From NCBI RefSeq assembly GCF_988243305.1, contig NZ_OZ547138.1: a DNA stretch of 64,000 nt; one strand, written 5' to 3'. Source of the stretch: a plasmid. Numbering within the stretch: position 1 is the first letter of the stretch; each line of letters opens with the position of its first letter. This document shows positions 45,001 to 51,000 of this stretch, one piece after another. A program made the position numbers.

Positions 45001-48000
45001 CTTCGGCGGTTTTACTCCGGTATCACATGTAACCACAGCGTGCCGCCTTCCATGCCGCTGGCGCGGCATATCCTGGTGACGATATCTGAATCGTTATATA
45101 CTGTGTATATACGTAGTAATGACGAGGTGATAAATGGCACAGGTTAATATGAGTTTAAGAATCGACGCTGAACTGAAGGATGCTTTTATGGCCGCTGCAA
45201 AAAGCATGGACCGTAATGGCTCTCAGTTAATTCGGGATTTTATGCGCCAGACCGTTGAACGGCAGCATAATACCTGGTTCCGTGACCAGGTTGAGGCAGG
45301 ACGTCAGCAACTCGAGCGCGGCGATGTGCTTCCCCATGACATGGTCGAATCTTCCGCTGCTGCATGGCGGGATGAAATGAGCAGGAAGGTTGCCGGTAAA
45401 TGATGGAGATATTCTGGACCATGCTGGCCAGCCAGGACAGGAAGCGCATTCGTAAGTACATTGCGGAGCAGAACCTGATGGCCGCCATTGAACTGGACGA
45501 ACGGATTGGTTATTCAGCCAGCAGCCTGGCCGGGCAGCCGTATAAAGGCCGCAACGGTCGTGTGGAAGGTACCCGGGAACTGGTTATTCACCCGCATTTT
45601 GTTCTGGTTTATGAGGTCGACAGCCAGTGGGGAAAAGTGTATATCCTGCGCGTGTTGCATACTGCACAGAAGTGGCCATAGAGGGGCTGTCCGGATATAA
45701 GGAAAGGAGATGCAATAACCATGAATAATGATGAGCTGGCCACCAGACGTGCGCAGGCGATTGCCGAAGACAGGTGTTTCTCGAAAGGACGTTTGCGCGA
45801 TGAATTCAGAATGAAACCAGCCCCCGGTGCTGAGCCGGTTAAGTGGTATAAAAACACTTATGGTGGCAGGTTCGCTGTATACCGAATTGCAGACTGTGTT
45901 CCGATGCGTGAGAAACGCCCTCTGACGAGTAAACAACAGCTGGCTGGCCAGCGACTTTCCGTTTTATCCAGACTTAACAGCACCAGTGGCCGGATGGCAC
46001 GGCAGGCATATGACTGGCTGAGTCTGGCACCGCTCTTTCTGGATACTGAAACGACAGGACTGGATAATACCGCGGAAGCCCTGGAAATCGGCCTGACCGA
46101 TGCGGCCGGTCAGGTGGTATTTGAAACCAGGCTGAAGCCCACGGTCGCCATCGGGGCGCAGGCCGCCGCTGTGCATGGTATCAGCGAGCAGGCTCTCTGC
46201 GGCGCACCATCATGGACAGATGTGGCGCGGCAACTGCGTCATGCAATCGGGGACCGACCAGTAATTATCTTTAATGCCCGGTTCGACATCCGCATTCTGA
46301 AACAGACTGCTGCCGCACATAGCGATCCGGCTGACTGGCTGGAAGAACTGACGGTATATTGTGCGATGGAGCTGGCTGCAGGATATTATGGGGCCACCAA
46401 CCGCTATGGCACGATTTCACTGGCCTGTGCTGCCAGTCAGGCCGGACTGACCTGGGAAGGGCAGGCACACTCAGCGATCGCCGACGCACGGATGACGGCA
46501 GGGGTGGTAAACGCTATTGCTGCATATCATCTGGAACTGCTGCAGGAACAGGCACGGCTGAAAATCTGACCGCCTGGCCTGTATACCGCAATCATTTACG
46601 TTATCCAGACGTAAATCCGCCGCTTGTTGCTGTCAGCATGTTAATGCTAATGTATGTGTACATTAGCATTAATGAGGGATGATATGTGAGAGACAAAACC
46701 AGGGAGGCCATGCGGCTTTTTTTAGGCGGCAGGTGCTACACGGCTGAAAAACTTGAAAAGGATTATCTGGCTGAAGTGGCTAATTACAGTAACGACCGCT
46801 GGGAAGCACCGCAACGTGCCTCACGCCTGGCTGCCAGCGTAAAGCGTTACAAGACATCAGAAATGCTGCGCTTTATTTTTGCTACCATTGCCTACGATCC
46901 CGATCCAGATTTAACCCCGCTAACTGTGAGACGTTTGTGCAAGGCATTGTTCGGCAGAACCGGAAGCCAGTGGCTGGTTGTTGAAGTTTTTGGGGAGAAG
47001 GGGCGTCAGCACCGCAGCGCGGACAGCAATCCGGAGATGGTGGAAAAAATGGCTGCCAGATATCGTCATGCCGCCGAACTACACTGGTCCGCAACGCTGG
47101 CAGAAATTGAACGGGTAAAGCGGCTTTATCAGACGAAAATTAAGAAATCCAAAAAATAAGTGGGTTGACTGCCATTGTTGTTCTTCTCCTTCATCATTAA
47201 TGTTAATGTATGCATACATTAGCATTAATGATGGTGCGTTAAAGTATCACTGGTATAATCTGGTAAAGAACATATTGAGAATGAGAACTTATCATGTCGT
47301 CACGCAACTCTGTACATGATTTTATAATGCTGCTCCCGGCGCTGCTGTTGGTTGGGTGGTTAGTTTTGGTGATAATTCTCATGTTTAGGGATGATAAATG
47401 TGACAAAACTTACCGTGAAGGTTCGTTTCCCGAATTTATTTGTCTCCATTCTGATCGCTCGTCACTTCGAGAAACCGATTCTGAGAGACTCATTGTCAAA
47501 TATACAGAAATAAAATCACAAAAATAGGTAAAACCAATAATACTATAGCTAAAAAATAGTTACTTTTCTGTATCACCCTGTCTCTCTCTGCTTTTTCATG
47601 GCTACTGTCATATTTATGTCTGTTGCGCGGTTTTGTTACTTTTTCATGACCGAACCCGAAATTTTGCGCGTCAATAAGAGACGTTGTGTAAACTCAGTCC
47701 TTTTATCTGGCAGGTTAACCCCTATCAATCTTAGGATGAAACCACGCCATCCTCTGTTTGCCTGGTTATTAATTTCATAAAGACGATTGTTTTCCTCTCG
47801 TAGTTTTGTCCACTCTAAACAAAGTGTTATATCATCCAGTTCTGTGATGTGTTTCACTTTTCCATTGACAGTTACAGTGTTTATTCCATTTCCTGTGAGC
47901 ATCATCTTATGCCTTTTTTATCTTCATTTGGGACCGTGCTTTTCTTCGGAGTATCACTATTCGTTAACTGCTGTTTATCAATAAAATTCCTGATGTTATC

Positions 48001-51000
48001 AAGTGCTTCCTTTGTTTTTAGAATGCGCTTGATATCCATTTCATCCCGCCCGGTCATTCTTTTTCCGGACAAAAGACGCTCAAGAAGCTCCTGTTTCGCA
48101 TCAGGAGAATCTTTGGCGAGATCCATCAGGTTAAGCAAATCTTCACGATCGAGAGGAAAGAAGTATTTTACAAAATACTTGAAAAGCGAAAGAAAGTAGT
48201 ATGCTGTCCATGCAATACAGAAACCGATTCTGAGAAACTCATTGTCAACTATACAGAAATACAGGTATACAATCAGGAGAATAGGTAAAATCCATAATAC
48301 TATAGCTAAAAAAATATATACGGGGATCAGGCGTCTGTATGCCCGTTCATGTTTATTCAGGATGAATAAAATCTTCTCCGCTTCTGAATCACACATAACA
48401 TTCTCTTCCCATTTTTTCTGATACGTAATGTCCACCTGTTATCAGGAGTGTTTATTGCCCAGAAATATTCTCCTGCTGTGCCTGCGTCCTGAGCCACTTT
48501 TGTTCTAATGTCGCCAGTCTGCGACCGGCACTCTGTGCTTCAGAGTCTGAGACCTGCCCTTTGGGGTGACCATCCAGGCCATAACGTGGGACGCCGGCGA
48601 CAGCTGTCCGCTGCAGATATACGCGGCGGGATGTGATGCAGGACACTGCACAGAGCCATTCGTCCATGGTCAGTTCTGTCTCCGGGTGTTCTGCCAGAAA
48701 TGCCGAAATATCATTGCTTATGCCAATTTTCAGGGGAATAAATCCACCACCTTCAGCACGAAGATGAGGAAACAGGGCCTTTATTTTTTCCACGCACTCG
48801 TGAGTATACTCACGGGTCCAGTGGGAGGGACGTGGAAAACGGTGTCTTTTCTTTTTCTTCTTCCTGGCTGGCGCTTCGGGGATATGTGTTTCGACGGCAG
48901 ATGAATTTATTCCGGCGGGGGCTGATTCTGCCGTCTGTTCAGTAAATACAGGTGCGATAATATCTGTTTTTTCGGATAAGGACGGTGGCGAAAAAGTACG
49001 ACGTTTTTTCACCACAATGACGGGAGTTTTCCTTTCTTCCTGATTTTTTCCCATAAATACCTCGGCTGGCTGGTTTTACTCTTTAATAATATCACAATCC
49101 ATAAATTAGTAAATTTCCCATCAGGTGATTTTTCATGGCTAATAAGTCCATTCTCTGAATATTTATACTCGAGGTAGTTACAGTTATGGCGTGACAGTCG
49201 AATTGATATTCTACTGAACCCTGACAGAAACATGGTTGATATATTCTCTCACTTTAATGTTGTCATGATATAAATAAAAACAATTCATTTGAAAGGATAT
49301 CAGAAGAAGATATCGGGGCGCACAGTTCATCTCTGCCTTTGTTTCATGGGGGGTTCTTTGTATATTTTACTTACTGTTTAAGCATGTACATAAGGAGTGC
49401 TTTCATTATGCCAATGATACTTGTAAAGAAGAATCCCCGGGGCAAAGTGATTCGGGAGCTTAGCAGTGAGGAAGAGACTGCAGTAAAGACGGTCTGTGGA
49501 CTGAAAAGGCCAGCAACCATGGCACAACATAACCTGGCCAATGATCTTCTCCGGGAAATGCGTGAGTATGATGCATGGTTACAGTGTGACTGTATTCCGG
49601 GAGATTCGCCGGCCATGAATTTTGCTGCTCTTAAAAACAATACGGGTACTCTTTATCTGTCCAGTTTTAATCATGAGCATGCACCTGAATGCCCCATGTA
49701 TCGTCAGTTATCCGGAAATGAAGAGGAAACATCCTTCGGAGCAAGCCGGCATCCCGTTAGCACCCGTATAAATTACAGAAACTTTTTACCACCTGATGAC
49801 AGTAATTCTGTTATCAGACTGCAGGCCCGCTCTGCTTACCATAATGGTGAGCGCTCCTCCGTTCGCAAGAAACGTCCGCGCCTTGGCCGTTTACTCCTGT
49901 CGCTTATTGAAGATGCAGGGCTGAATAAACTGGATTCCCTGGCTAATCCCCGTATCCGGACTAATTATCGTGAGTGTCTTGATGCCATACGGCAGGTTAC
50001 ACTACAGCAGGAGTATATTCGGGGAAGAGCCTTATCTGAAATTATCCATTTCCGGCCAGGAATGTCTGAAAGGTCTCAGGAGCGGTTAATGGAAACGCTG
50101 GAGAATTCAGAACGACACTGGCCTGCCAGAAGAAAGCATATGTTCTTTCAGATTTTTATGGCGCAGCACATCTGTCGTGATGCTGTGGAAATTCACTGGG
50201 CGAACGGTAATATTCAGGTCATCAGACCTGTGCGGGGGATCAGTATTAATGGTGAAGCGCAGGGCGGAATACGTCCCCCTTACTGGGTTATTCTTGCTTT
50301 TTGCCGGAGTGCCGATGGCAGAATCATCTGCAGTGAAGGGTATGCTCATGCTCTTTATCAACTGACATGTCCGGTGCCTGTGGACAGCAAACTGGAACGA
50401 AACACGCTCACTGCTCTTCTGAATGTGGCCAGCTGGCTTAAAAGAAAGCCAGGTACGCCGGAATTAAGTCTGGAAAGGCCCCTGTTTGATACAGAAGTTT
50501 ATGTTAATGGTGAAAAGAAATATGTACTGCCGGATTTCATTGTCACAGCAAGGGCTCCTGACGGAAAGACGGCCAGAGTGGTCATCGAAACGATGGGATA
50601 TGAAGACAGTGATTACTGCGCGAGAAAATCCAGGCAGCATACCGGCATGAAGCAGATTGGTGTTCTGCATACCGATCCACCGAAATGGCTGGATAATGAT
50701 CATCCCCCTTTTAAGAAACATATGTACGGTGTTTTTATGCATCTCAGGTACTGAGATATTTTGTGGCTCAGTTCTGTAACTTTTCCCGTAACATTGTCTG
50801 TTGTTACGGGAAAGTCCGGTTTTTGTATTGCACCAGAGAATACCCAGACTGTGATGCTGCCACAGTGTCAGCAGGCTTTCTGAACGGTATAACACCACTT
50901 CATGTTAATGATAATTACTATCATTAAATCTTGACATGCCATTTTCTCCTTAATAAATTAGTACTGTATATGTATCCATATACGTAAGCAGTTAATTCAT

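Follow-up and report, generated by a model that had tools for sequence, protein, structure and literature searches.

TraS, ExcA and SXT Eex are small plasmid-encoded inner-membrane entry-exclusion proteins with allelic variability, and the trb-type open reading frames (ORFs) of the F plasmid are short, often membrane-associated products of tra operons that are dispensable in laboratory matings. Between traR and traC, IncF-type plasmids carry a further ORF, labelled yfiA in one record (OZ026762.1). In ColIb-P9 of Shigella sonnei, the T5/BF23 inhibition gene ibfA was located at NC_002122 nucleotides (nt) 13,401-13,745 in a comparison of IncI1 plasmids (PMC8004404). The locus compared with these systems here consists of yafA and its neighbours yaeB and yaeA, which lie between yadA and fopA in an AT-rich islet (about 47050-48550) of plasmid contig NZ_OZ547138.1 (NCBI RefSeq assembly GCF_988243305.1); the whole stretch analysed, 64,000 nt, is called the window. 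The original prediction, made from the sequence alone, had pointed to a pattern seen for abortive-infection or exclusion determinants at this site. YafA was found to be a member of a small uncharacterised family that occurs almost only on conjugative enterobacterial plasmids. What is new is modest: YafA is linked to a family embedded in tra operons, and a recombination scar beside the gene is described.

yafA occupies 47902..48396 on the minus strand and encodes a 164-amino-acid (aa) inner-membrane protein with a predicted cytoplasmic N-terminal helix, a hairpin of two transmembrane (TM) helices and a predicted cytoplasmic C-terminal domain. A 177-aa two-TM gene had been predicted; the ORF exists, running open to a GTG at 48435 (47902-48435, minus strand), and its hydrophobic stretch of about 54 residues is resolved by hydropathy into two TM helices, but the product is most likely 164 aa long, starting at the ATG at 48396 that PGAP annotates. 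The 13 codons upstream of this ATG carry -1 and +1 indels in diverged alleles (loci L012 and L013). Because these compensating indels alter the amino acids but keep the nucleotides, the stretch appears to be a conserved, non-coding leader with a Shine-Dalgarno sequence, and the GTG start was dropped in favour of the ATG, the upstream codons not being conserved as protein in the diverged alleles. Both yafA and yaeB are taken as real genes, because homologues of either product down to about 47-50% identity conserve clear motifs and because the ratio of non-synonymous to synonymous substitution rates (dN/dS) of YafA is 0.33-0.54 over dS values of 0.4-1.9. Basic residues at both ends of the hydrophobic hairpin suggest an N-in/C-in topology. 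The AlphaFold2 model of YafA was poor (predicted local distance difference test, pLDDT, 55) and was left out of the fold search.

An exhaustive profile search for YafA gave 90 cluster representatives. The window protein matched the broad family profile (alignment A3) over its full length at 4e-59, and family members matched an IncI1-only profile at 1e-28 to 1e-14. Full-length distant members share three parts: an ILxxHE-bearing helix at the N-terminus, a two-TM hairpin of about 50 hydrophobic residues with a short variable loop, and a helical C-terminal domain; by alignment A3 and hydropathy, the window YafA has the same plan of ILxxHE helix, hairpin and C-terminal motif. This last motif reads RLLSGKxxTGRDExxI in YafA and RLLSGKxLTGRDExxI in the distant full-length members. 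R107, S110 and I122 are invariant in alignment A3, and H16, G111, T115 and D118 nearly so. Column identity was 0.56 and 0.64 in the predicted cytoplasmic parts vs. 0.29-0.41 in the TM segments and loop. By tblastn, 3162 plasmid records contain the family; the conjugative type accounts for 3049 of these, and mating-pair formation (MPF) systems of the MPF_F, MPF_T and MPF_I types are all represented; one copy lies in a chromosomal region resembling an integrative and conjugative element. Twenty family members were searched against Pfam with 0 matches. Searches of YafA, YaeB and YaeA against PADLOC, NCBIfam, PHROGs, Pfam and PDB returned nothing significant, as did scans of distant members, and PDB sequence-profile searches with alignments A1, A2 and A3 gave chance matches only. 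The remote homology search that had been proposed as a check thus found relatives of YafA in conjugation operons but no characterised family in the libraries searched.

The genomic contexts of the family differ between plasmid groups. In IncF-type plasmids, the homologue follows traR, the stop codon of which it overlaps by 8 nt, and precedes traC, in the order traV-traR-homologue-x-x-traC (eight loci, one of them annotated yfiA); a pSLT-like plasmid also carries a traR-traC homologue. Locus L025 (4480-5468) has two tandem YafA/YfiA paralogues between traR and traC of an F-type tra operon, and because of this tandem pair duplication is regarded as a recurring trait of the family. In IncX-like plasmids, the homologue lies between a gene for a NusG-like activator (actX) and the virB1-type transglycosylase gene (virB1/pilX1) that heads the type IV secretion system operon; the order there is NusG, a 74-aa ORF, the homologue, x, the transglycosylase (SLT), VirB3 and VirB4 (four loci). 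IncI2 plasmids carry the homologue between hicAB loci. Location within a transfer operon is confined to the IncF and IncX-like members, and yafA of the window and of the I-complex follows fopA near the replicon.

Compared with the systems introduced above, the IncF yfiA-type ORF is the closest. It belongs to the same family (37-38% identity to IncI1 YafA, profile E-values of 1e-28 to 1e-64) and has the same architecture and the RLLSGKxLTGRDE motif; it differs in being embedded in an F-type tra operon, overlapping the traR stop, whereas IncI1 yafA follows fopA outside the transfer regions. Like the trb-type accessory genes, yafA is dispensable for transfer, in pESBL, but YafA has no sequence relation to any Pfam or NCBIfam conjugation family. 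The likeness to entry-exclusion proteins would lie in small size, predicted inner-membrane location and allelic variability; the conserved part of YafA, however, is a cytoplasmic domain common to plasmids with unrelated types of secretion system, and homology to the exclusion proteins was not found. ibfA likewise encodes a small hydrophobic protein in the variable region after repZ of the same plasmid type, but at another locus and with another sequence, of 114 aa.

Literature searches on the function of yafA, yaeB and yfiA turned up only annotation mentions, the table of a transposon insertion sequencing (TnSeq) study of pESBL and the FopA paper. In pESBL, YafA was scored 0.96 for non-essential, 0.04 for essential for maintenance and 0.00 for required for transfer (PMC4288162), and in the FopA paper the functions of yafA and yagA are given as unknown (PMC7491321). 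On IncI1 backbones, yafA is mosaic. In a Salmonella Bareilly plasmid, the proteins encoded by yaeB and fopA are 98% and 92.5% identical to those of the window, and YafA only 60%; dS is 0.41 for yafA vs. 0.04-0.14 for fopA, with the divergence concentrated in the hairpin. The gene behaves as an allelic hotspot, in that alleles (L012, L013) with 60-63% protein identity at this dS stand between flanks of 92-98% and differ mostly in TM1, the loop and TM2.

The adjacent gene yaeB (47636..47905, minus strand) encodes a small soluble protein of 88/89 aa with the motifs GNGINTV...KHI and GWRGFILRLIG. The tightly following 89-aa ORF of the original prediction was confirmed in this gene, the start of which overlaps the yafA stop (ATGA / TGATG), so that the two are translationally coupled here. 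An AlphaFold2 model of YaeB (pLDDT 71) has a beta-hairpin plus helices; a Foldseek search with it against PDB and AFDB50 returned its own family alone. By tblastn, YaeB homologues were present in 3725 plasmid records. Most relatives are 56-67% identical and are carried by Klebsiella IncF, IncHI2 and other backbones, next to small hypothetical, Hha and H-NS genes; one homologue of 62% identity stands alone between parA/ribbon-helix-helix (RHH) partition genes and a resD-like recombinase gene. The two genes do not co-occur across relatives. Seven loci hold a YaeB homologue and no yafA, no YaeB-profile match was found in the loci bearing distant YafA homologues, and pESBL-type plasmids (L013) have an intact yafA (169 aa; a cluster of 437 members) beside a yaeB from which the first ~40 codons are missing. 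The pairing is confined to part of the I-complex, and yaeB is an unrelated gene for a small soluble protein, coupled to yafA here by chance. The last ~20 residues of ColIb-type YaeB (KRTEFTQRLLLTRKISGSVMKK; 47636-47700) are unlike the tail RTVFIKGINAKGExxYPE common to distant homologues, which points to a frameshift, or to a recombination end that lies just within yaeB, close to the junction at 47634 described below.

The recombination scar takes the form of a direct repeat, both copies of which are on the minus strand. Copy 1 (47470..47556, 87 nt) is a truncated, frameshifted fragment of a yafA allele, spanning about codons 28-73 (TM1, loop, start of TM2); copy 2 (48219..48313, 95 nt) lies inside intact yafA and codes for TM1, the loop and TM2. 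Identity between the copies is 95% in the first 43 nt and ~83-89% in the remainder, and the alignment contains an 8-nt indel; a search with the 43-mer gave 2 matches within 3 mismatches in the window vs. 0 in 100 shuffles. Read on the minus strand, copy 1 encodes ...NYFLAIVLLVLPIFVILFLYI up to a stop codon and then, in another frame, CIFDNESLRIGF; the YafA equivalent is IFLAIVLWILPILLIVYLYFCIVDNEFLRIGF. Weak protein-level similarity continues upstream of copy 1 to ~47610, and the outer part of the copy is antisense to the last ~19 codons of yaeA. The repeat of about 90 bp some 770 bp away, claimed in the original prediction as a decayed paralogue, holds up well in its extent and spacing (749-757 nt from start to start) and in being a decayed yafA copy. 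That it reproduces the TM-coding start of the gene with stops is right as to TM coding, frameshifts and stops, but the codons concerned are internal (~28-73 of 164) and not the 5' end. In two loci without yafA and yaeB (L004, L005), the fragment persists beside yaeA with further frameshifts, as expected of a pseudogene.

Between the fragment and yaeB lies a 77-bp spacer (47558..47634; megablast breakpoints, alignment A5 and L032), which ends at a sharp junction, 47634/47635, directly after the yaeB stop. The junction is marked by megablast breakpoints in two classes of plasmid: many I-complex plasmids match only rightwards of it (yaeB-yafA-fopA), and others match only leftwards (yaeA, the fragment and the spacer), with an acetyltransferase gene in place of yaeB-yafA. 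Because each module occurs alone elsewhere, the ColIb-P9 arrangement is read as two modules juxtaposed, with the fragment at the edge of the left one. In pO111-110512_1 (IncK2/Z), an exact deletion from repeat to repeat has cut yafA to 74 aa (ending in RIGFSK), removed yaeB and extended yaeA to 81 aa. The only demonstrated 'activity' of the 87-nt repeat is that of a substrate for homologous recombination, which removes yaeB and the 3' two-thirds of yafA. It is itself a dead fragment of another yafA allele, left by module shuffling at the edge of the neighbouring module. At locus L010 (4400-5470), an intact yafA allele of 66% identity comes directly after short fopA fragments (N- and C-terminal codons), yadA is inverted and an insertion sequence (IS) element stands on either side; this rearrangement is a further sign of a recombination-prone slot.

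Upstream of yafA, fopA (yafB; 48452..49054, minus strand) encodes a FinO-domain RNA chaperone (NCBIfam FinO/ProQ matches, annotation and PMC7491321) and is separated from the yafA ATG by 55 nt. FopA is the published chaperone for the antisense RNA Inc and controls Inc/repZ (PMC7491321, PMC9977716). A promoter-like site, TTTACT-16-TG-TATTAT, is present upstream of fopA (49086..49113, minus strand); as the output of a consensus scan only, it is not evidence of function. In the same kind of scan, neither the fopA-yafA gap nor the stretch after yaeB had a site resembling a promoter or terminator, and RNA folding downstream of yaeB, where a terminator or structured antisense RNA was sought, gave nothing (z = +1.25). 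From the gap of 16-55 nt, the ATGA coupling, the lack of an intervening motif and the promoter-like site, we infer co-transcription of fopA-yafA-yaeB; an operon partnership of fopA and yafA is probable, and 49086-49113 is the candidate promoter of the transcript.

In the explanation that we prefer, yaeA, the yafA fragment, yaeB and yafA would form part of a variable cargo slot of ColIb-P9-type IncI1 plasmids, between a replication-proximal stability module (repZ, yacAB, yacC, yadA) and fopA, and YafA would be a non-essential accessory membrane protein of conjugative plasmids. As a whole this explanation stands at about even chances. Its structural and evolutionary side is held with high confidence, and what it says of YafA function is tentative, with the balance leaning somewhat against it. 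The hairpin would act as a membrane anchor only, and the conserved cytoplasmic parts would engage a partner common to plasmids with different secretion systems, or to the hosts of such plasmids; being thus shared, the partner would probably be a host factor or a generic process of the donor cell. IncI1 yafA would be expressed from the fopA promoter as fopA-yafA-yaeB. Several points weigh against this account. No experiment ties any member of the YafA family to conjugation, and the sole relevant screen, the pESBL TnSeq, shows no effect on transfer in laboratory matings (PMC4288162). The association with conjugation operons is not universal, since IncI1 and IncI2 yafA lie outside the transfer regions, and a location between traR and traC may mean little, since the extra ORFs there differ between plasmids. 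Co-transcription with fopA is deduced from spacing, and with a pLDDT of 55 a mechanism for YafA goes without structural support. In a further-reaching and unlikely version, YafA/YfiA would be an unrecognised accessory factor across conjugative plasmids (more than 3000 sequenced, with F-, T- and I-type mating systems), membrane-anchored, with its cytoplasmic domain directed at a host target and its hairpin made hypervariable by an arms race in which phages or competing plasmids may be the opponents. Its activity would then coincide with the expression of transfer or plasmid regulators and might serve, for instance, to adjust plasmid cost or the envelope or stress physiology of the donor.

Four other explanations were weighed; in falling order of weight they make yafA a partner of FopA, an abortive-infection gene, a mating-exclusion gene and half of a toxin-antitoxin pair. 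A joint role of YafA and YaeB with FopA, as products of the distal genes of a fopA operon by the replicon, in the control of replication or copy number or in plasmid maintenance would agree with the adjacency and probable co-transcription of yafA and fopA in IncI1, IncK and IncB/O plasmids, with a ProQ/FinO gene within ~5 kb of three further homologues (L019-L021) and with the known control of Inc/repZ by FopA. It is nevertheless improbable: many I-complex plasmids keep fopA and lack yafA or yaeB, through insertion of an acetyltransferase gene (L005, L032) or deletion (L003), the IncF and IncX homologues have no FinO-domain neighbour, and yafA was not needed for maintenance in the TnSeq screen (PMC4288162). 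By another proposal, YafA would act, by itself or together with YaeB, in abortive infection or phage exclusion, as a membrane protein that brings about death or depolarisation of the infected cell. This proposal draws on the small two-TM protein, on AT-rich, horizontally shuffled DNA with toxin-antitoxin genes adjoining, and on the hicAB and other toxin-antitoxin loci around the homologues of IncI2 plasmids and of L019-L022. The yafA alleles, far older than their flanks by the dS values given above and most different in hairpin and loop, would also be compatible with diversifying pressure. The comparison with the mapped abi region of ColIb-P9, which had been suggested as a check, speaks against it: the function is assigned to ibfA (PMC8004404), a different gene about 8 kb from yafA (NC_002122 5163-5657), and the ibfA segment encodes an unrelated 114-aa membrane protein. 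ibfA was absent from the window by BLAST, because homology to ColIb-P9 stops at 53418 and is followed by an IS26/qnrS1/blaCTX-M region. At E<=1, PADLOC-DB 2.0 gave zero families for YafA, YaeB, YaeA, YadA, FopA and YagA; nine distant homologues, six of YafA and three of YaeB, gave one insignificant match (E = 0.005) to a restriction-enzyme model, and PHROG matches were likewise absent for the proteins and their distant homologues. Furthermore, the yafA-yaeB pair is not conserved, for many family members the setting is a tra or pilX operon, with translational embedding, and not a defence island, and the strongest conservation is cytoplasmic, not in the membrane segments as expected of a pore-former. 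With the gene for phage inhibition elsewhere, no defence-family match and no conserved pair, the determinant originally predicted finds no support here, and we consider it quite improbable.

A role of YafA as an inner-membrane protein of mating specificity or entry exclusion, with the variable hairpin and loop as recognition surface, is very improbable. Size and inner-membrane location resemble those of small exclusion proteins such as TraS and SXT Eex, the gene is found within transfer operons of IncF and IncX-like plasmids, and the membrane/periplasmic part is hypervariable between otherwise near-identical IncI1 backbones. Counted against this role, IncF plasmids have the exclusion proteins TraS and TraT. 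The IncI1 backbone of pESBL, too, already has the exclusion protein ExcA (pESBL table), one conserved cytoplasmic domain across MPF_F, MPF_T and MPF_I plasmids argues against system-specific recognition, and sequence similarity to described exclusion families was not found in searches of the family libraries. Least probable is an addiction pair of the toxin-antitoxin kind, which might be suggested by the small size and translational coupling of the two genes and by the many toxin-antitoxin modules of the region; such a relation is disfavoured because each gene occurs without the other, and the distribution has already largely refuted it. Each gene is found intact where the other is missing; the pESBL type, which is very common, keeps yafA beside a deleted yaeB. 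In addition, yafA tolerates transposon insertions, and matches to toxin-antitoxin families are absent.

The third ORF of the islet, yaeA (47294..47527, plus strand; 77 aa, one N-terminal TM segment, so annotated in pSTM709), begins at the left limit given by the original prediction, 47294, which omitted the ORF itself. The 77-78-aa form is widespread (one cluster is on 723 contigs, for example). Its status as a coding gene is doubtful, because comparison with L004 and L005 shows 0 synonymous and 6-7 non-synonymous differences and because several database variants are frameshifted after residue 32-47. A type I toxin was considered and rejected for yaeA, the sole support being an insignificant PHROG match (E = 0.22), with no sign of purifying selection.

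The islet stands out in the composition profile by a GC content of 0.36-0.41 vs. 0.50-0.59 in both flanks, so that the very AT-rich DNA of the original prediction was borne out. Segment 47160-48460 agrees at every position (100% identity) with ColIb-P9 (NC_002122.1 nt 4421-5721) and with hundreds of further IncI1 plasmids; matches to all or part of this segment were found in 1877 plasmid records. Over 42935-53418 the window tracks ColIb-P9 (record 208-10679) and diverges beyond. The annotated order is repZ, yacA-yacB (toxin-antitoxin), yacC (exonuclease), yadA, yaeA (plus), yaeB (minus), yafA (minus), yafB/fopA (minus), yagA (plus), and colicin Ib with its immunity gene; by this order the content of the islet comes down to three named hypothetical ORFs, yaeA, yaeB and yafA, already catalogued as plasmid genes.

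In the flanks, the Rfam PK-repZ pseudoknot (43030-43180, 173.9 bits) confirms an IncI-type replicon control region; Rfam searches of the whole window, and permissively of 46400-49400, returned PK-repZ alone, besides a spurious miRNA match on a palindrome. Two long, perfect or near-perfect AT-rich palindromes flank yadA (46641-46682 and 47187-47233; TTAATGCTAATGTA...TACATTAGCATTAA; arms 14-21 nt), each at 30-70 nt past the last stop codon and a short way upstream of the plus-strand ORF that follows. Downstream of the second comes an extended -10 (TGgTATAAT, 47251-47259), which lies 35 nt ahead of the yaeA ATG. The same palindrome also flanks the yacAB-yacC-yadA module in an IncF plasmid (L031), and these palindromes may be operators or recombination sites. 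On the other side, the only NCBIfam match of YagA (yagA, 49339-50754), to the C-terminal end of a BPTD_3080-family restriction endonuclease, is very weak and below threshold (E = 0.071). Past 53418, after the colicin Ib immunity gene, follow an IS6-family (IS26-like) transposase gene (53471-54193), an ISKra4-like fragment, and, on the minus strand, qnrS1 (55534-56190), a Tn3-family transposase gene (57643-60192) and a CTX-M beta-lactamase gene (blaCTX-M; 60831-61766).

As originally put forward, the finding is an ordinary one: the ORFs are hypothetical genes that already bear names, from a plasmid whose sequence is decades old; hundreds of records carry them unchanged, and the abi locus is a different one. 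In I-complex plasmids, the repeat documents reshuffling of the fopA-proximal slot. Beyond this, the locus is a pointer to a two-TM family with a sharply conserved cytoplasmic motif on thousands of clinically important conjugative plasmids (IncF, IncI1, IncK/B/O, IncI2 and IncX-like), often in transfer operons; missing from every curated family library searched, the YafA family is an inexpensive target for deletion and phenotype work.

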